Shown: one piece after another, positions 1,137 to 62,461 of the stretch
Numbering within the stretch: the first letter of the stretch is position 1
Layout of the letters: every line of letters begins with the position of its first letter
Origin: Minisyncoccota bacterium
GTDB taxonomy: Bacteria; Patescibacteriota; Minisyncoccia; Phycocordibacterales; PALSA-1337
Length of the DNA: 64,000 nt
Reading direction: 5' to 3'
NCBI GenBank assembly: GCA_017991475.1
Contig: JAGOQK010000001.1
Coordinates: forward strand, 12,783-76,782
Translations under genes and position numbers: made by a program
Notes under the pieces: model-generated
What the model saw: the letters and a program-made list of their open reading frames with translations, nothing else
Databases searched by the model: none
What the model was told of the DNA's origin: nothing

Positions 1137-1373
1137 ATGAGCACCGTAACTATCTACTCAACGCCTACTTGCGTCTATTGCAATATGGCCAAGAGCTTCT
1201 TCAAGGCAAACAGCGTCGAGTTTACAGAGCACAATGTCGCTTCTGATCTCGAGAAGCGCAAGGAAATGATCGACAAGACTGGTCAGATGGGGGTTCCTGT
1301 GATCGATCTTGGTACCGAGGTCATCGTCGGATTTGATGAGGAGAGAATCAAGGCAAGTTTGGGGATCAAGTAA
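1137..1373 (+). CDS. glutaredoxin-like protein (NrdH/YruB-like, CxxC)
   Basis: 78 aa with a TPTCVYC redox motif and a thioredoxin-fold pattern. A terminator hairpin lies immediately downstream. Confidence 0.8.
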   Translation: MSTVTIYSTPTCVYCNMAKSFFKANSVEFTEHNVASDLEKRKEMIDKTGQMGVPVIDLGTEVIVGFDEERIKASLGIK

Positions 1374-2296: not shown

Positions 2297-2370
2297 TGGT
2301 GCGAGATGCGGGAATCGAACCCGCGCCACATGCTTGGGAAGCACGAATTCTGCCACTGAACTAATCTCGC
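2297..2370 (-). tRNA. tRNA-Gly (anticodon CCC)
   Basis: The reverse complement folds as a cloverleaf. The acceptor is GCGAGAT/ATCTCGC, the D arm is GTTC..GAAT, and the anticodon stem CGTGC/GCATG carries the loop TTCCCAA. The T arm is GCGGG-TTCGATT-CCCGC, with discriminator A and an encoded CCA. Confidence 0.85.
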
Positions 2371-10047: not shown

Positions 10048-10151
10048 GGTACGCAGGATTTATAGTAATACCTTCCATTGTAGCAATAGTACCGCGAATA
10101 TCAAATGTGAATTTCTTATACGAAAATACCCCCAGTTTCCCGGGGATATTT

Positions 10152-10611
10152 TCGTTGTAGCCGTACCATAAGCCGAATTCTGTCCCCCTACTCCGCGTGA
10201 AGCTTCGAAGGGGCAACAACTATTTATCTAGGATGCATGTCGCCATGCATCTCAAGCGACTCTCTCTACAAAGCCTTACAGCGAGGTAGAGCACGGTCTT
10301 GCACTGAAGTAAGGGTTTTGCCGTTGCACTTCAACCTTAGTTGAAATTCTACGAAGCCTTACGGCGAAGTAGAACTCCAACCTATAGTTAAATTCATCCT
10401 CCTATGCTCTCGCTTGCGCTCGAGCTTCAGAGGACGATTTTTCCCTTTCGGAAAAAATCGTCACTGTTCGCACCTCTGGGTATTATCCTGACAGGGATTA
10501 CCTGCTACTTGCTGCATTATGAGAGCAATTGCTTATTCCCACAATGCCAGTGTTCGGACTTTCCTCTCTACGAAGCCTTACGGCGAAGTAGAGCAGTTGT
10601 CTAGTACAGCT
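10152..10611 (-). ncRNA. rnpB: RNase P RNA (rnpB), bacterial type A, about 460 nt with expanded hairpins
   Basis: The minus strand carries the P4 strands GAGGAAAGTCCGAAC and ACAGAATTCGGCTTAT. The 3' region GCTTGAG-[ATGCATG GCGA CATGCAT]-CCTAGATAAATAG is colinear with the E. coli M1 P15-P18 region. P1 pairs AGCUGUACU with GGUACGGCU. Confidence 0.8.
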
Positions 10612-10713
10612 ATATCTATTATATCACACTTGGCTTGATTTGACAATATCCATCTTACACAGTATATTAGCCCCAGAAATACGGTTCTATTCACACCTAA
10701 CCAGGAGATACAT

Positions 10714-10947
10714 ATGACAATGGATCCTTCAGAGATGACCCTATTTGCGGGCGGACTTCTTACATTTGCAGGTATCGCAGGTATAGGATTGATTCTGCTT
10801 TTCAAAAAACCGACACGAGACCATCGAGGCACACGAACATTGAGCATGCAGGAGGTATTCCTGATACTGTCGCTTATAGCTGTTGCCATCGGCGTTCTCA
10901 TCCTATTGCTCAGCTACGCCTACTCAACATCTCGCGGTTACACATAG
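10714..10947 (+). CDS. small membrane protein with two TM helices
   Basis: 77 aa preceded by aggaga. An intrinsic terminator follows at about 10961-10997 (ccgctcccc..ggagagcgg + T6). Confidence 0.45.
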   Translation: MTMDPSEMTLFAGGLLTFAGIAGIGLILLFKKPTRDHRGTRTLSMQEVFLILSLIAVAIGVLILLLSYAYSTSRGYT

Positions 10948-11033: not shown

Positions 11034-13358
11034 TTATACGATTTCGCACACTCCACTCACACACGCCAACTCCTTTTTAAGATCAGTCTCATTCTGCTTC
11101 TCGTAGGTCGTGATTTTGGAATAGTCCACATGCTCGAGCTTCTTGGACAACTCCTTGTAGGTCTTCTCGTCGATAGACTCATACGGAGCGAGCTTGTAGA
11201 CGGTATTCTCGCGCGGCAAGAATGAGAGTCCGCCGACCATATCCCAGTTGTTATACACCCAGTTGGCGACCGCTATCCACTCATTGTCTCCGACCGAAAT
11301 CGTCACTGATGGATTGTGCTCGGTATAGTTCTCCTTGACCATCTTCCAATACTCGAGCTGTTCGATAGCAGAAAGATCATCGCGGAAGATCGAACCTGAA
11401 GGAGCCTTGACCGGAAACTCGAGGACATAAGTGGTCGCATTCTCCTCGGTTTGTCCGACCTCAGGGAAATACGGCACACCCTGATCCTTGAGCATCTTGA
11501 AAAGTGCGTCAGTCGCGGCAATACGGATACGGCGGATATAGAACTTGGAGTGACGAGGATGCATCCCTGATGAACAATCCACTGTCTGAGAAAGGGTTCC
11601 TGACGGCTTCACACAGGTGATAGCAGTCGACTCGTTGACGCCAAACCTCTTGGCATATTCCTTGTTGACGCGAATAGCCTCGGCCTTGAGTTTCCTCATA
11701 ACTTCAGGCTTGCGGACAGCCGGGCTGTCCCACTGACCGGTGATAGACACTCCGAGCAAGCGTTCACGATCACAATGCTCTTTCCATTCCTTGGAAAGAT
11801 ACGGGAAATTGGTAAGTGTGGACTGGTATGTACCGAGAATCGTGGCGATGCGGATCTTCTTCATGAGCGTCTTCTCGGTGTCTTCTGCACGAGCTACGAT
11901 CTCGGAGAGATTGCAGAACTGTTTGGACTGGAGGATGATCTCTCCGCACGGGTTGGTACCGATAGGACCGACGATGTGCTGACCTGTAGCGTCAAAATAG
12001 CCCTTATACTCCTTCAAAGCCTTAATACGACGTTCAGGAAGTGTCTTGGCGAGAGAACCGCGGTTGAATATACCTCGTTCACCAGACTTACTCTCGACGA
12101 GAGCCATCCACTCTTTGAGGAACTCTTCATTGGTCGGCTTGTTGATGTAGACAGCAGAATTGTTGGCCAACATACGGTGCGGATGAGTCATGTAGAATGC
12201 ACCCTTCTTGGCATCACGGATATGCTCATCAGCGAGGTCAGAAAGTGAAATCATGGCGCTACGGCGAACACCTCCTGCAACCACACAATCTCCGATCATA
12301 CAGATGATATCGTGAAGGTCGATCGGGCGGAGACGCTTGCCCTGACGACTAAGCATGACCTGGCGAGTGAAGCCATGAAGTCTCTGGAGCGGAGCCGGAC
12401 CTGATGCCTTACCTCCCATCACCTTGAGACGAGCACCCTCGGGACGGATCTGGGAATAGTCGAACTCGATGTCCTTGCCTGCGGCCCACGCTTTCATACC
12501 GACCGTAAGAGAATCTGCCCAACCTTCTTTGTGATCTGGGATGACATGGGTCGTGAGCTTGTCTCCTGACTGCATGATGATCTGAGGAAATTTTTCGACA
12601 TTGGTCGGCTCAACTGCCCAACCTGCCCCCGTACCGCACATAGAAATGTACATGATTTCAGCAAGATCCTGGAATGATTCTGGTGCAATAAATGAACAAT
12701 TGTAGGCGCAGACATTGGTGACACGAGCAGCCTTACCTGAGAATTGGAAGAGGCGCATCGAGGGCATAGCCTCCTGCTTGATGATAGCGTCACGAACTTC
12801 CTTGTATTCCGCATCCTTGAGCTTGGATCCGAGATTTTCCTTCATGAAATCCATGTAGCGATTGACCGTCTCCACATAGGTCTCGCGGCGATTCTCCGCT
12901 TCGATCCAACGAGAGTAGGATCGGTAGTAGACGAGTTCTCCGAGTGCGGTCCTGAATGACTTCTTGGACTCAGCAGCAAGCTTGCGGACATGTGGAGGCA
13001 CCTCGAAACCCACTGCGCGGAGCTTGGCACGCTCCTCACGATAGATAACATAGTGTTTTGCGGTCTTCACATAGTCAGAACGCATGAGTTCTGCCTCAAC
13101 AATGTCCTGAACACCTTCAACTGTCGGGACGAAGTTGGCAAACTTACGCTTGATACGAATCAGTTCTGAAAATACTTGTTGGCCAACCATCTGTGCATCT
13201 TCAAGAGACCCTTCTTTGACGGTATTCATGCCCTTCCAGATCGCAGCTGCGATCTTTTCCAGATCAAAAGGAACTATCCTTCCATCTCGTTTAATAATTG
13301 TAGGAATAGAGGCGACCTTAGACGACCCCTTCGATGTGGTTTTTTGTTTCTTGGGCAT
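11034..13358 (-). CDS. nrdJ: class II (adenosylcobalamin-dependent) ribonucleotide reductase NrdJ with an N-terminal ATP-cone
   Basis: 774 aa. It has an ATP-cone (IIKRDGRIVPFDLEKI) and the RNR active-site motif TNPCGEI. Confidence 0.9.
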   Translation of the reverse strand: MPKKQKTTSKGSSKVASIPTIIKRDGRIVPFDLEKIAAAIWKGMNTVKEGSLEDAQMVGQQVFSELIRIKRKFANFVPTVEGVQDIVEAELMRSDYVKTAKHYVIYREERAKLRAVGFEVPPHVRKLAAESKKSFRTALGELVYYRSYSRWIEAENRRETYVETVNRYMDFMKENLGSKLKDAEYKEVRDAIIKQEAMPSMRLFQFSGKAARVTNVCAYNCSFIAPESFQDLAEIMYISMCGTGAGWAVEPTNVEKFPQIIMQSGDKLTTHVIPDHKEGWADSLTVGMKAWAAGKDIEFDYSQIRPEGARLKVMGGKASGPAPLQRLHGFTRQVMLSRQGKRLRPIDLHDIICMIGDCVVAGGVRRSAMISLSDLADEHIRDAKKGAFYMTHPHRMLANNSAVYINKPTNEEFLKEWMALVESKSGERGIFNRGSLAKTLPERRIKALKEYKGYFDATGQHIVGPIGTNPCGEIILQSKQFCNLSEIVARAEDTEKTLMKKIRIATILGTYQSTLTNFPYLSKEWKEHCDRERLLGVSITGQWDSPAVRKPEVMRKLKAEAIRVNKEYAKRFGVNESTAITCVKPSGTLSQTVDCSSGMHPRHSKFYIRRIRIAATDALFKMLKDQGVPYFPEVGQTEENATTYVLEFPVKAPSGSIFRDDLSAIEQLEYWKMVKENYTEHNPSVTISVGDNEWIAVANWVYNNWDMVGGLSFLPRENTVYKLAPYESIDEKTYKELSKKLEHVDYSKITTYEKQNETDLKKELACVSGVCEIV

Positions 13359-39559: not shown

Positions 39560-40003
39560 ATGGAAATAAGCACTACGGAGTTCTCCGTGGCGCGAGCCAT
39601 GGAACTCTATGACCTCCTCAAGGAGAAACAAAACGAATACCTCATTCGCATCAAAGGATTGGAATTTTCATGGGACAATTCATGGTATGAGATGGATCTT
39701 TTGGCTCGATATGATGAAGATCCAGACTTCAAGCTCCTGTATTACAAATTCGTCATAGTATCAGTCCTCGTCATGGCATGCGAGAAATACCCTCAGAAGG
39801 TCAGAGAAAAAGACCCTCATGTCGAAGACGTCGTCAGTGCGCGATATGTCGGCGTTGACCTCTCTCACGCGCTCTGTCGCAGTCTCAATGTCAAAGTGTT
39901 TAACAATGCCTGCGACGTCATCTCAGACTATCTATCAGGCAAGCTAGTCCTCCAATCGAGCGGACCCATTCCGACCGAACCACAGAACTTAGCGACCATA
40001 TAG
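39560..40003 (+). CDS. hypothetical protein
   Basis: 147 aa. An intrinsic terminator follows at about 40006-40040 (cagagcatc-ccctttcgg-agatgctctg + T6). Confidence 0.5.
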   Translation: MEISTTEFSVARAMELYDLLKEKQNEYLIRIKGLEFSWDNSWYEMDLLARYDEDPDFKLLYYKFVIVSVLVMACEKYPQKVREKDPHVEDVVSARYVGVDLSHALCRSLNVKVFNNACDVISDYLSGKLVLQSSGPIPTEPQNLATI

Positions 40004-40070
40004 CACCAGAGCATCCCCTTTCGGAGATGCTCTGCTTTTTTGTATGTGATTCTAACCAACCAAGTAACAA

Positions 40071-40457
40071 CTACAATGCTGAGTAGACCCACGGTATCGC
40101 GATAGCCATGGTCATGAGAGCTGCTGCAGCCAGAGCCATGTTCTTCTCGAAGTTGATTCTCTCACCCATGCGCATCATAGGATCCTGAATCTTCCAGAAA
40201 TCATGCATCTTGAGTGACACTGGGACGAGGAATGCAATGATCGCCACTGCTCCCCAGACTGTCCAGACACCAAGAATCATCGACAAGCCACCGAAGGCGA
40301 GCAACATGCCTGAACCGACAATCGCGAGCTTAGGAGACTTAACTCCTTTGGACTGCGCGTACCCGACAAGGTGCGCTGACTTGAAGATGTGATTGTATGC
40401 ATTCTTGAGGAAGTATCCTCCGAAAATGATGCGACCGATAAGGAATGCTATTTCCAT
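40071..40457 (-). CDS. DoxX family membrane protein
   Basis: It has IIFGGYFLKNAYNHI and four TM helices. The start is taken at the internal MEIAFLIG to avoid overlap with the RT gene. Confidence 0.7.
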   Translation of the reverse strand: MEIAFLIGRIIFGGYFLKNAYNHIFKSAHLVGYAQSKGVKSPKLAIVGSGMLLAFGGLSMILGVWTVWGAVAIIAFLVPVSLKMHDFWKIQDPMMRMGERINFEKNMALAAAALMTMAIAIPWVYSAL

Positions 40458-40527
40458 AAATGTGTTCGTATATATGTTAAAACGACCCTTGGTAATGTGG
40501 GGTGAGTATAGCAAAAAATGCTGAATA

Positions 40528-41574
40528 TTACATACGATTGATTTTTTGTTCGATCTTGTACCCATCACAATGCGTCAACATGCCTAAATAGGAATTCAGC
40601 GTATGGTCAAATGTCTCTTGTGTTATCAAACCTCTATTCATTCTTGCCTTTGTGAACAGTATCTTTTTCATAATTCTCTTTTTAGTCTTGGTACGCAAAA
40701 CTGTCTGTTGTGGCAAGGTAACATACCCAAGAAAATCAATGCCTTGAGTACATTTTCGTATAACAATTTTATGGGGGTGCAGGAAAAGGTGCAATTTCTC
40801 CTGAAGAAACGAATCAACATCTCGAATATACTTTTCAAGTACACTAGTATCGGGGTCGAGAATGATAAAGTCATCACAGTACCGGAGATAGTATTTTGCT
40901 TTAAGGGTGTGCTTCACAAATTGATCCAACTCATTGAGGTACACATTAGCAAAAAGCTGACTCGTCACATTACCCAGAGGCAAACCGGCACCCTGCTTTA
41001 CTTCGAAGCTACCAAGAATCATCTGTATGATTGATAAAATATCTGGATCAGTAATTTTTCTTTTGATTATCGCAAAGAGAATTTCATGATCAATATTGTC
41101 AAAAAATTTCCTCACATCACACTTCAAGGCAAGTACAGGTTGAGTGTAATTATGACTCATTTTTCTGATATATCTTTGGAGCATTTTCACCCCTCGATGT
41201 GCACCTTTCCCATTCCTGCATGAATACGAATCAGGTATAAATCCTTTATCGAAAATCTGATACAATACCCGAAACAAAGCTTGATTGAACACACGATCAC
41301 GAATGCTTGCCTTGTGGATATGCCGTAATTTTGGATCACGGACATAAAATGCTACATAAGTATCAGGCTTCCAAACCTTTTGCTTCAATTCGATATGAAG
41401 CTTGAATATAGTATCTTCGAGGTTGAATGCAAACTCTTGTACTTCTATCTTACTCGTCTTCCCCCGCTTAAACTCTTTCCATGCCAAAAATAAGTTTTCT
41501 AACGAAATAACATGCTCAAACAAGCCTCCTTGAAAAGCCCCCCCCCACGCAATTTTGATGTACCTATTGTTCAT
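40528..41574 (-). CDS. DGR reverse transcriptase
   Basis: 348 aa. It has RT motifs including YCDDFIIL (YxDD) and GLPLGNVTSQLFANVYLNELD. The [IL]GxxxSQ motif replaces the QGxxxSP of group II introns and is the DGR-RT hallmark. It has no maturase or endonuclease domain. Confidence 0.85.
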   Translation of the reverse strand: MNNRYIKIAWGGAFQGGLFEHVISLENLFLAWKEFKRGKTSKIEVQEFAFNLEDTIFKLHIELKQKVWKPDTYVAFYVRDPKLRHIHKASIRDRVFNQALFRVLYQIFDKGFIPDSYSCRNGKGAHRGVKMLQRYIRKMSHNYTQPVLALKCDVRKFFDNIDHEILFAIIKRKITDPDILSIIQMILGSFEVKQGAGLPLGNVTSQLFANVYLNELDQFVKHTLKAKYYLRYCDDFIILDPDTSVLEKYIRDVDSFLQEKLHLFLHPHKIVIRKCTQGIDFLGYVTLPQQTVLRTKTKKRIMKKILFTKARMNRGLITQETFDHTLNSYLGMLTHCDGYKIEQKINRM

Positions 41575-41892
41575 AAGATCACTCGGTTTTATAAAGATGT
41601 ATACATACTAGGGAATAAAATATCGAAACGAGACAAATTCGGAATCTATCTCAAAGTTGAAAATGTCAGCATCGATCTCATCACAATATCCATTGACGCT
41701 GCCCTCAACCAAAAAGATAGAAAGAAGCCTTTACTCTACCAACTTCGCATCAGAATCGAAACCTTAAAACAACTCATCAGAGCAATGAATGAACTCAAAA
41801 TCATTGAGGATAGACCCTACATAGCTCTCGAGGCACAGCTTCAGGAAATCTCAAAGATGGCTACAGGATGGATCAAATACTTGGAAACATAA
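41512..41892 (+). CDS. avd: Avd-like accessory variability determinant (four-helix-bundle, PF05635-like)
   Basis: ...KFGIYLKVENVSIDLITISIDAAL...YIALEAQLQEISKMATGWIKYL matches the four-helix-bundle/23S-IVS protein pattern. It is encoded on the strand opposite to RT and TR, and its 5' end overlaps the RT start. The true start is uncertain (ATG 41512 or in-frame TTG 41530). Confidence 0.65.
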   Translation: MLKQASLKSPPPRNFDVPIVHKITRFYKDVYILGNKISKRDKFGIYLKVENVSIDLITISIDAALNQKDRKKPLLYQLRIRIETLKQLIRAMNELKIIEDRPYIALEAQLQEISKMATGWIKYLET

Positions 41893-41928
41893 AAGAGAAT
41901 CTCACGACCCCCTTTTACGACGATACTT

Positions 41929-42041
41929 CTGCACGAGCACGGAGGTTGGGATTGGAGTTCGACGAGTTGTTCCAGTTGACATAGACCTTGCGGTTGTCGG
42001 TATTCCAGTTCACGTTCGGGACGTTACCGTCCGAATAGCGC
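41929..42041 (-). repeat. DGR template repeat (TR)
   Basis: It is homologous to 42368-42480. In minus sense it is rich in AAC/AAT codons (RYSDGNVPNVNWNTDNRKVYVNWNNSSNSNPNLRARAEVSS). Weaker homology extends about 12 nt further 3'. Confidence 0.85.
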
Positions 42042-57429: not shown

Positions 57430-58578
57430 TTATTTATCCTCAAATAGACTCACGTACTCGCGATGTATATAGAGAGAAGGTTTTACCCCCTCTCCTTTGC
57501 GGAGCAATTTGACAACTCCAACCTCAATAAGCTTATCAATAAGCTTGATAGTTCCTTGTCGAGTATATCCCGTCCACTCTTCTATTTGAGCTGTCGATGC
57601 AACGGGACTCTTGTACAGATTTTGTAATACACGAACTGCGGTATTAGTTGGATTAGTTGCTATAGTTGATATCCTCTCAAGATCCTTATCACGCAATTTC
57701 GTAATCTTTTTTGAAACTTCTATAGCCTGTTGTGCTGTATCGATAACAGCATCCAAGAAGAAATCAACCCACGGTAAAATATCACCGGCATGGTATCCAG
57801 CAAGTCTTTGATAGTATATTTTTTGATATCTCTTGAAATATGAGGATAGAAACAATGTCGGCAACTCCAAAAACTTATAATGAATAAGATAGAAGGTAAT
57901 CAACAGACGACCTGTACGTCCATTACCATCAAGAAATGGGTGTACAGTCTCAAATTGAGCATGAAGAAGCCCTGCATCGATTATTGGATGAACATAGGGT
58001 GAATGTATGAATTTCTCTACATCATTCAGCGCCTCTGGCAACTCCTCAAATGCAGGTGGAACAAAACTTGCATTACTCGGTGCTGTTCCACCGATATAGT
58101 TTTGGCTCTTTCTGAACTCTCCAGGATCTGAAAAATGTGTAGCACGAGCACCCTTCATCAACTCCTTATGAAGTTCACGGATAAAGCGCAAAGAAAAAGG
58201 AAAATTGTCTTCTTTGAGCCTCTTAAGTCCATAATGCAATGCTGCAATATAATGCGAAATATCATCAGCGTCAGTGTCACCTGGATTGGCAGGATCCGCG
58301 GCATATTCAAAGGCCTCAATCATCGTCGCTTTTGTTCCTTCAATCTGTGACGAAGAGGTAGCATCCTTGGTGATATACGATGAGATAAAATAATCAACAT
58401 CTGGTAGCAAAAGTGTGATGCCAGAAAGTTTACCCAAAAGAAATTGGGCTTCGTTTGCTTTTTGGAGCATCTTTGTCTGCGCCTCAATCGCATTTCTTAT
58501 TTTTGCAGGAAAAGGAAACAATGAGAGATACTCATAGCCTTTTTGGTGCTTTTTTGTTGTTCCCAGTTGAATCTTCAT
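57430..58578 (-). CDS. Fic family protein (AMPylator/Doc-like) with a C-terminal winged-helix domain
   Basis: It has the Fic motif HPFLDGNGRTGR. Confidence 0.9.
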   Translation of the reverse strand: MKIQLGTTKKHQKGYEYLSLFPFPAKIRNAIEAQTKMLQKANEAQFLLGKLSGITLLLPDVDYFISSYITKDATSSSQIEGTKATMIEAFEYAADPANPGDTDADDISHYIAALHYGLKRLKEDNFPFSLRFIRELHKELMKGARATHFSDPGEFRKSQNYIGGTAPSNASFVPPAFEELPEALNDVEKFIHSPYVHPIIDAGLLHAQFETVHPFLDGNGRTGRLLITFYLIHYKFLELPTLFLSSYFKRYQKIYYQRLAGYHAGDILPWVDFFLDAVIDTAQQAIEVSKKITKLRDKDLERISTIATNPTNTAVRVLQNLYKSPVASTAQIEEWTGYTRQGTIKLIDKLIEVGVVKLLRKGEGVKPSLYIHREYVSLFEDK

Positions 58579-58689
58579 ATATATCTATGCAGTTTATGCT
58601 ATTTTCATAGCTTAAACCATTATAGCGTTTCAGTTTAAGGTAGTCAAGTTGCTTAAACTCAATGCTTTATAGTGGAGAATTATACTCCC

Positions 58690-59013
58690 CTATATGAGTT
58701 TGTATATATCTAGCGCAACCTCTTCATACGGATGAACTTTCTTAATTGCTGCAACCACCTGATCAACAAGAGAATTTTCAACCGTTATCTCAATACGCTC
58801 TTCTTCTACCTCCTCCAACTTCCTCACTTCTCCAATATGAGGCTGTGCTCCCATTTCAGGTTTGAATCGCCCAATACCACGAATTGAGAAGCTACAGAAT
58901 GAATAGTTACCGAGTTTACCCCCACCAGCTTCACCAATTGCTTTGCGAACAATATCGGTGTGAGTAAGGGGGACGTAGACTATTATTTTGGAGTGTGGGA
59001 TAGCTAGGGGCAT
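58690..59013 (-). CDS. standalone PII-fold domain protein related to the Nif3/YqfO insertion domain
   Basis: FSIRGIGRFKPEMGAQPHIGE...HPYEEVALDIY resembles the YqfO C-terminal/CutA-like segment. Confidence 0.4.
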   Translation of the reverse strand: MPLAIPHSKIIVYVPLTHTDIVRKAIGEAGGGKLGNYSFCSFSIRGIGRFKPEMGAQPHIGEVRKLEEVEEERIEITVENSLVDQVVAAIKKVHPYEEVALDIYKLI

Positions 59014-59041
59014 GTATTATAAGTAAACGAAAGTTCACTAT

Positions 59042-59650
59042 CTATAACATCACAATCTCACCAACATGACCTCCATCAACTTTTTTCTTTACAACTTTAA
59101 AGGATTCAGGTGCACTTAACCCGATAATCAGTAAAGGTCCACGCAAAATTGTACTAAGAGGTCTCAGGTACCTACAAAATTTCTCAAATTCACCAACAGC
59201 AGAATCAAATGCTCCCGCCTCCTTTAATTCTTTGGTAGCAGAAATAATAACGCCTACCTCTGTTTCAATTGCCTTTAAGACATTATTCTGCTCGCTAGCC
59301 AATGCAGGCTTCAATAAATTCCAAGCGATAGCCTCCCCATGGTTAAAAGCAACCTCTACAGAAACAGCGTCCTTTGCAAAATCAAGTCTCCATTTTTGGC
59401 CCTGGTAATCCTTATCCTGAAAAATCGGAGCCTCCTTCATCCAACCCTTTCCAATAAACCTTTCTCTAAGTAAATCATTTATAGCATGAGACAGACTCAT
59501 TGTTTGAGGATATTTCTCCCGATGCCTGGAAATGATGTCACTATCTGAGATACTAGAAATAACCTCTTCAATTTCGTGATACTGTGTAACGTATTTTTCC
59601 TGACTTAAAATGAAATCTCCGTGCTTATGTGATTCCTTTATGAATTTCAT
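59042..59650 (-). CDS. putative type II restriction endonuclease (BglII/BamHI-like active-site region)
   Basis: LDFAKDAVSVEVAFNHGE resembles the BglII D-x9-E-V-Q-F catalytic segment. It is divergent from an adjacent C5-MTase and lies in an AT-rich island. Confidence 0.5.
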   Translation of the reverse strand: MKFIKESHKHGDFILSQEKYVTQYHEIEEVISSISDSDIISRHREKYPQTMSLSHAINDLLRERFIGKGWMKEAPIFQDKDYQGQKWRLDFAKDAVSVEVAFNHGEAIAWNLLKPALASEQNNVLKAIETEVGVIISATKELKEAGAFDSAVGEFEKFCRYLRPLSTILRGPLLIIGLSAPESFKVVKKKVDGGHVGEIVML

Positions 59651-59727
59651 TGAGGTAAATTAGACAATATATATTAGAATAGATCAATCTTGATCGAAAG
59701 TCCATATGGTGCTAGAATCGAGGAATC

Positions 59728-60993
59728 ATGAAAAAGCAGTCAAAAGACATAAAGGTTGCTGAACTATTTGCGGGTGTGGGCGGTTTTCGCATGGGACTTG
59801 AAGGTAAGAACAAAAAGTCCGGCTATAGGGTCGTCTGGAGTAATCAATGGGAACCATCGACCAAACGACAACACGCATCCGAAGTATATGAAAATGCATT
59901 TGGTAAAGATGGTCACTCAAACGAGGATATTGCCAAAGTACCCGTACACACAATTCCTGACCATGATTTACTAGTAGGAGGGTTTCCTTGCCAAGACTAT
60001 TCTGTAGCAAGAACTTTAAGTCAGTCTGCAGGACTTCAAGGTAAAAAAGGTGTCCTCTGGTGGTCTATTGAACGTATTCTCAGAGAAAAGAAATCAAAAG
60101 CTCCTAGCTTTCTCATGCTTGAGAATGTAGACAGGCTTGTAAAGTCCCCTGCCGCACAACGTGGAAGGGATTTTGCGATAATGCTAGCCTCACTTTCAAA
60201 TCTTGGCTATATAGTTGAATGGCGTGTAATCAATGCGGCTGATTATGGAATGCCTCAAAGAAGAAGACGAATATATATCTTAGGATACAAAAAAGGAACA
60301 GCTCCTCATAAAGAAGCATCAAAATATCAACCTGATGAGTGGTTACTACGAAATGGATTATTTGCAAAATCATTCCCCGTCACCCCTAAGGATACAAGCT
60401 CAAGTAATATCGATCTAACTGGTGAACTGGATGAAATCAGCAAACTATTCAATAAAGAATCTTCCAAGGGAGACTCACCATTCCACAATGCTGGATTAAT
60501 GATTGGTCGAAATGTATGGACTATCCGCACTACACCTGATTATAGTGGTAGCTCGACTTTGCTTGGCGATATACTTCTTCCAGAAAAAGATGTTCCTGAA
60601 GAATATTTTGTTGATGAAAAAGATTTAAAGGGATGGAAATATCTTAAAGGAGGAAAAAAGGAAAAAAGAAAAGGCAAAGATGGTTTTGAATATGAATACT
60701 CCGAAGGCCCAATTGCATTCCCTGACTATCTTGATAAACCTTCGCGTACGATCGTTACAGGTGAAGGAGGCTCAACACCTTCACGCTTTAAGCATATTAT
60801 TAAATTAAAATCAGGGCGCTACCGAAGACTTACTCCAGTTGAACTTGAGCGACTCAACATGTTTCCAGATAACCACACAAAGCTTGATGGCATATCCGAC
60901 GTGAAGCGTGCATTCTTCATGGGCAATGCACTTGTAATAGGGGTTATTGAAAGACTTGGAAAGGAGCTTCTCAAACACATTTCTGAAATGTAA
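59728..60993 (+). CDS. DNA (cytosine-5)-methyltransferase
   Basis: It has motif I ELFAGVGGF, motif IV GGFPCQDYS, ENV (LMLENVDRL) and a C-terminal TRD. Confidence 0.9.
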   Translation: MKKQSKDIKVAELFAGVGGFRMGLEGKNKKSGYRVVWSNQWEPSTKRQHASEVYENAFGKDGHSNEDIAKVPVHTIPDHDLLVGGFPCQDYSVARTLSQSAGLQGKKGVLWWSIERILREKKSKAPSFLMLENVDRLVKSPAAQRGRDFAIMLASLSNLGYIVEWRVINAADYGMPQRRRRIYILGYKKGTAPHKEASKYQPDEWLLRNGLFAKSFPVTPKDTSSSNIDLTGELDEISKLFNKESSKGDSPFHNAGLMIGRNVWTIRTTPDYSGSSTLLGDILLPEKDVPEEYFVDEKDLKGWKYLKGGKKEKRKGKDGFEYEYSEGPIAFPDYLDKPSRTIVTGEGGSTPSRFKHIIKLKSGRYRRLTPVELERLNMFPDNHTKLDGISDVKRAFFMGNALVIGVIERLGKELLKHISEM

Positions 60994-60994
60994 T

Positions 60995-62461
60995 TTAGAA
61001 ACCTAATTGCTGTTGTCCTTTATTATTGTCATTTAAAAATGGGGGCGGATTTATTTCCACTCTCCTCCAGGCACTTTTTACTCCTTTTTTATCAGGAACC
61101 ATTTCAATATAGCCCTTACCTTTAAGGTTATAAAAACATCCCTTCACTTTATTTTCTGATTTAATACCCGTTATTTCTCGTGCGGTCTTATTATTTATTT
61201 CATTATGATTTCTAAGATACTCCAATATCTGGTCCTCGGGAGAAGCCAGTGGCTCATGTGGTAAAATTACAGTTACTTTAGTTTTTGTAGCATTAATTAT
61301 TGGAGGTTTCAGTCTTACATCCTGCATTTTTTGAAACGCAGTATTTAAACCCTCCCCAATATCATGATTAGGTCGATCTGGATACTTATTAAGAAGTCTG
61401 ACTAATTTGGGGTTACGGGAAAATCTTTCTGTTAATATATTTTCTGCTGTTATAAATGCTGGCAGTGATCCCGGACTACTAATTTCAATTCTATTATTAA
61501 AAATGAACACTGAAACATCATCAGAAATATTATAATCTCTATGAATCAGAGCATTTACTAAAATCTCCTTTATGGCAGCAGGAGGATATTTTGCTCTCTC
61601 AAGACCTGTTGTTCCCATTATTGGTAGGGCATTAATTATTCGCTGCATCTCCTGAAGACCTCTAATAATTTGTTCATGAATTGGCCCTTCAATAGTTGTC
61701 TGACACTTAATATGTTCCCTTTCTGGGACTTCTTCGCTCGTATCATACCAAGTTATTTTTAATCCACATCTTTTCTGAAGAACCGCAGACGGATTATCAT
61801 CATATAATAAGACTCCAGCATATACCGCACTCTGATTTGTACCAGAATCAATTATTAAGTACTGCTTCATAAGAAATTCCTTTGGATCAACCTTTGGAAG
61901 ATAGGAATCAATAAAGTTTTTTAATTCTTTGGAATTAGTTAGCTGTATTACATTATAATCAACTACCAACTGATTTTCATAACTTTTAGCCCCCTTAGAT
62001 AATTGAAGATTTGTTATATCATCTCCAAGAATTAGAAGGCATTGTGCGCCCATGCGTATATACGCGTTCTGACCTGCAGTGTAATGAACATCTGAACTCT
62101 TATCAATTGCCACACTCAAAACTTTTCCGAGCTCTTCATGACCATCAATTTCTAAAAAATCAAAATGGGGGTCCAAGAGTCTGGGTTCAATATTTCTAGT
62201 TATATCAGCGATTGCATTATTGGCATCTTCTTGATTAGCGAAGCCATCCCACCGCTCAAATTTTCCTCCACTCAACACTTTTTCATTTCGATCATGAATA
62301 CCAATAATCAATTCTCCCCCATCAGCATTGGCAAAAGAAATGCATTTTTTCTGAAGTACTTCCCCTCGATAATCCCTCCTTGTAACATCAAAAAAATGTC
62401 CTTCTTCTTCCTGTAGTAATGCTACCGCGTCTGATTCTGATATTTTTTTGATTCTAAACAT
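60995..62461 (-). CDS. AlbA_2 (divergent AAA/Schlafen-like) DNA-binding domain plus HATPase_c_4 protein, a putative ATP-dependent regulator
   Basis: It has ISFANADGGELIIGIHD (AlbA_2) and ILVNALIHRDY (HATPase_c_4). Confidence 0.7.
   Translation of the reverse strand: MFRIKKISESDAVALLQEEEGHFFDVTRRDYRGEVLQKKCISFANADGGELIIGIHDRNEKVLSGGKFERWDGFANQEDANNAIADITRNIEPRLLDPHFDFLEIDGHEELGKVLSVAIDKSSDVHYTAGQNAYIRMGAQCLLILGDDITNLQLSKGAKSYENQLVVDYNVIQLTNSKELKNFIDSYLPKVDPKEFLMKQYLIIDSGTNQSAVYAGVLLYDDNPSAVLQKRCGLKITWYDTSEEVPEREHIKCQTTIEGPIHEQIIRGLQEMQRIINALPIMGTTGLERAKYPPAAIKEILVNALIHRDYNISDDVSVFIFNNRIEISSPGSLPAFITAENILTERFSRNPKLVRLLNKYPDRPNHDIGEGLNTAFQKMQDVRLKPPIINATKTKVTVILPHEPLASPEDQILEYLRNHNEINNKTAREITGIKSENKVKGCFYNLKGKGYIEMVPDKKGVKSAWRRVEINPPPFLNDNNKGQQQLGF

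Follow-up and report, generated by a model that had tools for sequence, protein, structure and literature searches.

One quasi-palindromic hairpin at several helices of a divergent RNase P RNA gene from a Paceibacteria bacterium

In the window, as we call the whole 64-kb stretch of DNA analysed here, the gene of RNase P RNA (rnpB) carries one hairpin in several places. According to sequence comparison and predicted folds, this hairpin cassette seems to form P3, the tip of P14 and P16, and, in an inverted and decayed form, P19. Our preferred explanation, to which we give a probability of about 0.6, is that this is a functional CPR rnpB in which a quasi-palindromic cassette was copied locally, at the DNA level, into helix tips that tolerate it.

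The RNase P RNA gene and its hairpin copies

The initial annotation had identified an rnpB gene of about 460 nt with three near-identical 28-nt hairpins. The RF00010 model matched a divergent type-A RNase P RNA from end to end (model positions 1–367, 80 bits, E = 2.1e-24), the measured length is 459 nt, and all the copies lie inside the mature RNA (Table 1). The hallmarks of RNase P RNA are present (AGGAAAGUCCGAAC, GGAAAGUCCGAAC, ACAGAAUUCGGCUUAU and a P18 capped with GCGA). The conserved core is complete and colinear; it includes both strands of P4 (GGAAAGUCCG and ACAGAAnnCGGCUUA), J18/2 (CCUAGAUAAAU), the nested P1 and P2 and the GNRA-capped P18. These core elements align to RF00010 with a posterior probability near 1, and they are conserved across the 61 lineage genes. 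The end-to-end match, the core and the capped P18 uphold the identity of the gene. P1 (AGCUGUAC paired with GUACGGCU) and P2 (GACAACU paired with AGUUGUU) close the molecule, and the fold of the whole gene has z = −6.9. The score of 80 bits is below the gathering score of RF00010 (100 bits), so the gene is missed by a default Rfam scan. Part of this shortfall is probably due to the repeats and expansions among the helices, and the compact rnpB of the relative L047 also falls short of the cut-off (87 bits). Standard annotation therefore overlooks rnpB genes of this kind. The P4 strands are 381 nt apart in the window, as against a lineage median of 313 nt and a range of 230–460 nt (61 genes). 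This spread indicates that the peripheral helices are very labile in the lineage.

Table 1. Positions in the window of the rnpB gene, its helices, the hairpin copies and the flanking signals
Feature	Positions	Strand	Basis
rnpB, divergent type-A RNase P RNA, 459 nt	10154–10612	−	RF00010 match
Promoter-like site, TTGTCA-17 nt-TG-extended TATAAT (TGnTATAAT)	10618–10646	−	11/12 consensus matches
Copy 1, entire P3	10566–10593	−	0 mismatches; R1 46.9 bits; directly 5' of AGGAAAGUCC (P4)
P12, CGAUUUUUUCC-GAAA-GGGAAAAAUCG	10435–10460	−	Position and GAAA loop kept across relatives; in MFE fold
P13, 24 nt longer than UCCUC-GCAA-GAGGA of relatives	10397–10434	−	Alignment with relatives
P14, extended from ~18 to ~63 nt: UUUAAC/GUUGAA base, 14-bp stem, cassette tip	10330–10392	−	Fold −27.1 kcal/mol, z = −5.4
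Copy 2, tip of extended P14	10347–10374	−	2 mismatches; R1 46.3 bits; unique to window genome
Copy 3, P16, terminal hairpin past the P15 internal loop CGUG/AGA	10264–10291	−	3 mismatches; R1 40.3 bits
P18, GCGA tetraloop	10233–10250	−	cmscan alignment, high posterior probability
Copy 4, inverted and diverged, apparently forming P19	10186–10212	+	R1 21.9 bits, E = 0.0086
Terminator-like hairpin AAAAUAUCCCCGG-GAAA-CUGGGGGUAUUUU followed by U-run, 3' of rnpB	10121–10153	−	Read from sequence

The repeated unit is the 28-mer CUCUACUUCGCCGUAAGGCUUCGUAGAG, or CUCUAC-UUC-GCC-GUAA-GGC-UUC-GUAGAG in RNA. All three copies described in the initial annotation were found on the minus strand, where they are separated by 191 and 55 nt. 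At up to 3 mismatches, no further match to the 28-mer was found in 64 kb (0.00 expected from 100 shuffles). In the predicted fold of each copy, a 6-bp foot leads through a 3 × 3 UUC/UUC internal loop to a 3-bp stem capped by GUAA (−11.5 and −8.9 kcal/mol), and the cassette hairpin is stable on both strands (−11.5 and −12.6 kcal/mol). The likeness to a CRISPR array, which the initial annotation itself doubted, does not hold in view of the unequal gaps and the position of the copies within rnpB helices.

The placement of the copies was established by comparison with about 65 related rnpB genes. Both the RF00010 match and the relatives bear out that copy 1 is P3. With low confidence, cmscan placed copy 2 in P13; this is a misalignment, and the alignment with compact relatives places copy 2 in P14. 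Copy 3 had tentatively been described as an arm similar to P12, P13 or P14, and it turned out to be P16, beyond the internal loop of P15. The helix order in relatives is P12 (GAAA), P13 (UCCUC-GCAA-GAGGA), UGAA, P14 (CUCAUG-GCAA-CAUGAG) and then GUGCAACGG, as determined from the alignment with compact relatives and the Rfam alignment of the compact L047 gene. The slots of P12 (GAAA), P13 and P14 in the window were located by this alignment. The P14 of the window is about 45 nt longer, and a 45-nt gap is found at the same point in all 8 aligned relatives. The two arms of the extended P14, TTTAACTATAGGTTGGAG and TTTCAACTAAGGTTGAAG, are near-duplicates of each other, both of one small hairpin. 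Near-duplicate flanks of 18–19 nt are found at the P14 copy only and are themselves this duplicated hairpin.

Copy 2 is identical to copy 1 at 26 of 26 inner positions, and the sole difference is in the outermost pair, where C-G is replaced by U-A. The initial annotation regarded this as a compensatory change. The pair has indeed changed on both sides, but as evidence of selection on the RNA the change is weak, because only one pair is involved, the outermost, where the copied tract ends within a continuous 14-bp stem. This pair can equally be local flanking sequence. Copy 3 is identical to copy 1 at 25 of 28 positions. Two of its three transitions fall in the internal loop, as had been noticed before, and the third changes C-G to U-G. 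By our own estimate, the probability that all three are tolerated by chance is roughly 0.3.

We built a covariance model (R1) from seven such hairpins and scanned the window without filters. Over 64 kb, copy 4 was the only significant match outside the training set, and there were no copies outside rnpB. Because this match lies on the opposite strand, P19 is read as an inverted, decayed copy of the cassette. On the plus strand it reads CCCUAC-UCC-GC-GUGAA-GC-UUC-GAAGGG, and a by-eye comparison with the P5.1 hairpin of L028 gave 23 identical positions out of 27. On the opposite strand of the expanded P13 there is a weak likeness to the cassette (GAAG/CAUA internal loop), which is not significant (R1 11 bits, E = 3.2).

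Several other properties of the gene were observed. The GGU that pairs with the CCA end of tRNA is absent from the P15/P16 internal loop, whose 5' strand is CGUG and whose 3' strand is AGA. The sole tRNA gene in the window, tRNA-Gly with the anticodon CCC (2297–2370, minus strand), encodes its own 3' CCA. This contrasts with the AGA in the loop at 10261–10263/10292–10295, where type-A RNAs carry the CCA-pairing GGU. P17 is not evident in the window rnpB. Between P5 and P7 there is a hairpin (10516–10551, minus strand) similar to P5.1 of type-B RNAs in an otherwise type-A RNA, and relatives have it at the same position. Its loop contains a short palindrome, GCAAUUGC in the window and GCGAUCGC in many relatives.

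The promoter-like site is strong; it ends 6 nt upstream of P1 and would place the transcript start at about 10612. The terminator-like hairpin on the other side of the gene was not called by a consensus scan. A second promoter-like site (10640–10668, plus strand, TTGACA-17-TATATT) is divergent and stands back to back with the rnpB promoter, which it overlaps. It faces a 77-residue ORF (10714–10947, plus strand) of a predicted membrane protein with no recorded Pfam hit. The neighbours of rnpB in the window are genes of a class II ribonucleotide reductase (RNR), a small membrane protein, a TPR/O-antigen-ligase-like protein and MurJ. The source of the DNA is an uncultured, ultra-small Paceibacteria/Parcubacteria (CPR) bacterium; the relatives of the RNR among GTDB genomes are all MAGs of Candidatus Taylorbacteria, Paceibacterota or Parcubacteria. 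Of 81 sequences (the window and 80 related loci), 61 have rnpB next to the class II RNR gene, on its downstream side. The G+C content is 0.37–0.41 at 58001–62000 and 40001–42000 of the window, compared to about 0.48 elsewhere, which may mark foreign or unusual segments.

Turnover of helix tips among related genes

We compared the helices of the window rnpB with those of related genes (L numbers denote the loci). Four further genes (L101 and L103–L105, representing three clusters of closer relatives) were obtained through homologues of the TPR protein. The expansions of P14, P13 and P19 were found in none of the 8 close relatives aligned, and P19 is an optional helix, missing in L047, L105 and L101. 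An orthologue of the P16 cassette is present in L105 (CUCUAC-UUC-GCC-ACAC-GGC-UUC-GUAGAG) and, in a diverged form, in L101, L103 and L104 (CUCUGC-UUU-GUC-GCAA-GGC-UUC-GCGGAG). The P16 of L022 is of the cassette type as well, with the same foot and a long tip. In L047, L021 and L023, P16 is instead a short GCAA hairpin. From L047 alone, copy 3 had looked like a recent gain; the orthologous cassettes in L105, L101 and L022 reversed this assessment. P3 is cassette-like in the window, in L022 and partly in L047, and the latter two have the same foot (CUCURY) as the window. In L105 and L101, P3 is an unrelated short hairpin, and the cores of these genes nearly match that of L047. Near-identical cores with different P3 and P16 thus indicate that helix tips are exchanged much faster than the core changes.

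Variants are also shared between helices of one gene. In the window, P3 and P16 both stand on the foot CUCUAC; in L022 these two helices have CUCUGC instead. Every window copy also has the GUAA loop. Judging from these alignments, variants that are common within a genome and missing from the orthologues are the signature of concerted evolution. The initial annotation offered two readings, a repeated structural module and a small repeat that had spread within rnpB. The fixed module gives way to the observed turnover: close relatives do not have the P14 copy, and P3 and P16 are swapped in and out. The spread of a small repeat within rnpB is closer to the evidence.

The window gene is not the only one with repeated hairpins. 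Among about 62 related rnpB genes, 6–9 have duplicated hairpins of another sequence within the gene, in direct or inverted orientation. The rnpB of L037 has an exact 43-nt duplicate in P5.1 and P13 (extract positions 89 and 212), that of L071 has a duplicate in P13 and P16 (26 of 28 nt), that of L032 an exact 18-nt duplicate in P5.1 and P19, and that of L028 a 16-nt duplicate. In L097, P3 and P13 are reverse complements of each other. Direct repeats of at least 16 nt were found in 5 of 60 genes and in 7 of 1200 shuffles. A local-alignment score between helices of at least 14 was reached in ~10 of ~1000 comparisons within a gene and in 1 of ~11,500 comparisons between genes. As far as these genes can tell, hairpin duplication is general in the lineage and independent of the particular sequence. 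In addition, a composite insert of ~100 nt is found at differing helices in three species, at P5.1 in L064 (5744–5837) and at P16 in L063 and L097. The insert opens with CCGUGC-UWCG-GCACGG-AGAUCC; its end in L064 and L097 is UUGGAAUUUCC-YUGCGKAGC. A second recurrent hairpin type, with the feet YCCGAG...UCGAGG and purine-rich internal loops (UGA/GAA-like), was observed among P3, P5.1, P13 and P16 of rnpB in L037, L038, L050, L054 and L064. In L038 this type forms both P3 and P16, with similar tips.

Copying within rnpB would then be local, non-reciprocal and at the DNA level. It presumably proceeds by ectopic gene conversion or by template switching during replication between hairpin-forming sequences, and the shared flanks UG...AG around P3 and P16 may assist it. 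The direct and inverted products, the concerted evolution and the rapid turnover fit copying of DNA; both orientations are expected for DNA copying and not for an RNA motif. The RNA would tolerate such copies because stable hairpins form from either strand, and the copies would persist because helix tips outside the catalytic core accept any stable hairpin. They are probably near-neutral passengers or generic stabilisers. We suggest that the P16 copy came first, the P3 copy later and the P14 copy last. The P16 copy would be the oldest because it is common to relatives and carries three transitions, and the P14 copy the newest because its 26 inner positions are identical to those of P3 and it is unique to the window genome.

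The hairpin family outside the gene and competing explanations

We also assessed how far the cassette occurs outside the window rnpB. In 957 kb of related Paceibacteria DNA, about 3% of which is rnpB, R1 gave 9 matches with E < 1. Seven of them are inside rnpB, in both orientations. The other two form an inverted intergenic pair in L046 (1127–1161, plus strand, and 1201–1239, minus strand), and one of these hairpins matches P16 of L052 at 92% identity over 37 nt. This pair abuts the 5' end of a tRNA gene (1238–1309, plus strand); it is REPIN-like and may lie in a pre-tRNA leader. With no copies outside rnpB in the window and two at E < 1 in the related DNA, the high-copy dispersed repeat that the initial annotation had considered finds no place here. 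Loose CTAC...GTAG hairpins are not enriched in the window (5, compared to 8.5 in shuffles). With a looser regular expression, 50 matches were counted where shuffles gave about 27, and the excess consists of the rRNA, rnpB and L046 members. An abundant dispersed family was therefore dropped.

An exact-pattern scan of JGI metagenomes returned 19 loci for the 24-mer pattern; the same 24 nt, on a UCCUAC/GUAGGA foot, were found in two settings. In the first setting, the cassette caps helix 68 (H68) of 23S rRNA in eight contigs (L002 2316–2343, L012 2885–2912 and six others), which are metagenomic, bacterial and taxonomically unplaced. In the second, the 24 nt are inverted and form a hairpin that follows P2 in a group I intron of 23S rRNA, and a variant of the tip is present in two more contigs. 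The intron copy lies about 140 nt from H68 in L014/L018. A further locus listed for the 23S and intron setting is L007 3353–3380. The H68 tips differ between the near-identical 23S genes of L007 and L019, so the H68 tip is a swap site as well. Nine of the 19 loci (L004, L005, L008, L010, L011, L013, L016, L017 and L020) are not flanked by complementary sequence and were discounted as chance or coding matches. The exact 24-mer pattern was found neither in the scan of GTDB species genomes nor in viral contigs. Weaker family-like hairpins were seen in rRNA operon spacers and intergenic DNA of L002, L003 and L007. A second 23S hairpin of the same architecture (CUCUAC-UUA-GCUC-GCAA-GAGC-AUC-GUAGAG) was observed ~1.44 kb upstream of H68.

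Two observations concern L094. An in-frame palindrome in a YqeY-like gene was rejected; it aligns with ordinary YqeY with a length difference of 3 residues, and E is ~4. At 11485–11547 (minus strand), nested cassette-like hairpins lie in the N-terminal extension of an RsmH-like ORF, with model scores that are not significant.

We tabulated 20 family members by hand. Within RNA genes, 11 are sense and 6 antisense, the window P19 among the latter. Antisense copies occur in rnpB (the window P19, L095 P3, L052 P16 and L056 P13) and in group I introns. Foot pairs 1, 2 and 5 covary, the 3' GCUUCG is present in 16 of 20 members, and the tip varies freely. The unpaired UUC/UUC loop is conserved, though a drifting palindrome should lose or repair it. 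This hints at a factor that recognises the loop at the RNA or DNA level. Purely local copying leaves the exact identity with the H68 and group I intron hairpins unexplained; an identity of 24 nt needs either transfer between genes or genomes or strong constraint. The persistent UUC/UUC mismatch and the identity across organisms therefore keep two other explanations alive, a functional RNA module and a mobile palindrome.

As an RNA-level module, the hairpin would be a protein recognition site or a tertiary contact, reused in RNase P RNA and in H68 of 23S rRNA. By analogy with K-turns and L7Ae, several copies might recruit several proteins or brace a reduced ribozyme. We think this unlikely. Conservation of the internal loop and of the G-C pairs that close it, beside variable tips, is in keeping with such a module, but the tetraloop is not conserved (GUAA, ACAC, GCAA). 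The covarying foot pairs also speak for a module, but in a palindrome such covariation may also have a DNA-level origin. The sense majority (11 against 6) and the identical 24 nt at the H68 tip point the same way; however, the cassette is antisense in four rnpB helices, including P19 of the window, and in group I introns. P3 resembles P16 in three species with three different sequences (the window, L022 and L038), and this likeness could reflect a functional need rather than conversion. Nevertheless, relatives with nearly identical cores do without the cassette at P3, P14 or P16, and other species have duplicated unrelated hairpins in the same way.

A further reading, to which we also give a low probability, goes beyond a single gene. 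CPR/Paceibacteria may harbour undescribed tiny hairpin cassettes (~25–40 nt), guided by a factor into the helix tips of structured RNAs in either orientation. Their design would be foot, C-UUC-G, variable tip, C-UUC-G and foot, and they would be actively moved or converted through recognition of the mismatched loop. RNase P RNA, helix 68 of 23S rRNA, group I introns and rRNA spacers would be their targets. If this is true, there would be dedicated helix accretion in functional RNAs, or a protein-binding module shared by the ribosome and RNase P.

The second explanation kept alive is a palindrome of the REP/REPIN or MITE type moved by an enzyme, whose surviving insertion sites in a gene-dense genome are rnpB, rRNA and introns. 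It is quite unlikely in our opinion. The cassette does resemble REP/REPIN in being an imperfect palindrome of 20–40 nt with a conserved asymmetric mismatch and a CTAC/GTAG foot, found in both orientations and, in L046, as an inverted intergenic doublet beside a tRNA gene, one half of which nearly matches L052 P16. REP/REPIN are present in tens to hundreds of copies, mostly intergenic, but here there are none outside rnpB in 64 kb and only the L046 pair at E < 1 in 957 kb, and the loose CTAC...GTAG hairpins are not enriched. The family-like hairpins in rRNA operon spacers and intergenic DNA of L002, L003 and L007 would suit a mobile element, yet in the metagenome contigs with 23S rRNA just a handful of these weaker hairpins are located away from rRNA genes. 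The ~100-nt insert common to three species at different rnpB helices is also consistent with mobility. However, the cassette has neither terminal inverted repeats nor regular target duplication, P16 and P3 replace existing tips and are not insertions, and the hairpins duplicated in other species are unrelated. A MITE proper was rejected: MITEs measure roughly 50–500 bp, the unit here is a single 28-nt hairpin, and P3 and P16 are replacements without duplications.

An assembly artefact, in which a short-read assembler collapsed or mis-joined the DNA at the 26-nt repeat, is very improbable: the source is a metagenome assembly with exact 26-nt repeats within 300 nt, but the identical arrangement is found in the separately stored Logan contig L001, the flanks differ from copy to copy and make structural sense, copy 3 has diverged and its orthologues occur in independent genomes, and a repeat of 26 nt is below the usual length of assembly k-mers and reads.

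Comparison with known systems

Local copying of hairpins within rnpB remains our preferred reading, and we compared it with what is known of RNase P RNA and of repeats. CPR RNase P RNAs have been described that score below the Rfam thresholds, with helices extended or missing, and the CCA-binding UGG/GGU motif in L15 is missing in 23 of 35 genomes (Lui et al. 2021, PMC8172020). The window gene is similar in its sub-threshold score, in its lineage-specific helix extensions and in the AGA on the 3' side of L15. The paper deals with extended and missing helices and is not known to mention one hairpin at several helices of a gene, or hairpins copied between helices, rRNA and introns. A literature search covering rnpB and Patescibacteria for hairpin repeats and palindromic elements gave nothing directly relevant beyond this paper. 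The window rnpB is one instance of recurrent helix-copying in Paceibacteria structured RNAs, and it is a variant of known helix expansion or repeat invasion.

Repeats inside rnpB have reportedly been seen before, by Vioque in 1997, in heterocyst-forming cyanobacteria. The STRR repeats there are said to be heptamers in tandem, which in the RNA occupy a single helix (P12) and are numerous across the genome. In both cases a repeat family is tolerated in a peripheral helix of an essential ribozyme gene. Unlike STRR, the window unit is a 28-nt hairpin located at four separate helices, and it is not abundant elsewhere. REP/REPIN and the Rickettsia palindromic elements are short imperfect palindromes with a conserved mismatch, present in both orientations and tolerated inside genes. 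In contrast to them, the window cassette has a very low copy number and is concentrated in structured-RNA genes, and its copying looks local and intragenic.

Template switching at quasi-palindromes, together with ectopic gene conversion, would yield direct or inverted copies of hairpins nearby and their concerted evolution. To our knowledge, template-switch mutagenesis usually affects a few bases or perfects a single palindrome, and it has not been described as a source of ribozyme helices. Binding of L7Ae to K-turns in archaeal RNase P RNA and rRNA is a known case of one protein-binding module in both molecules. If a specific factor maintains the mismatched loop, the cassette would be a new mobile or protein-binding RNA module in CPR bacteria.

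In rRNA expansion segments and helix accretion, hairpins are added at tolerant tips and the core is not disturbed. The H68 tip of 23S rRNA discussed here is such a variable site. In large structured RNAs, the gain of helices is usually inferred from ancient "insertion fingerprints". Unlike in rRNA expansion, the donor and recipient of the cassette are still recognisably identical, and the events can be traced among close relatives. Because donor and recipient are identical and the states before and after are preserved in relatives, the gain, replacement and loss of helices can here be followed event by event.
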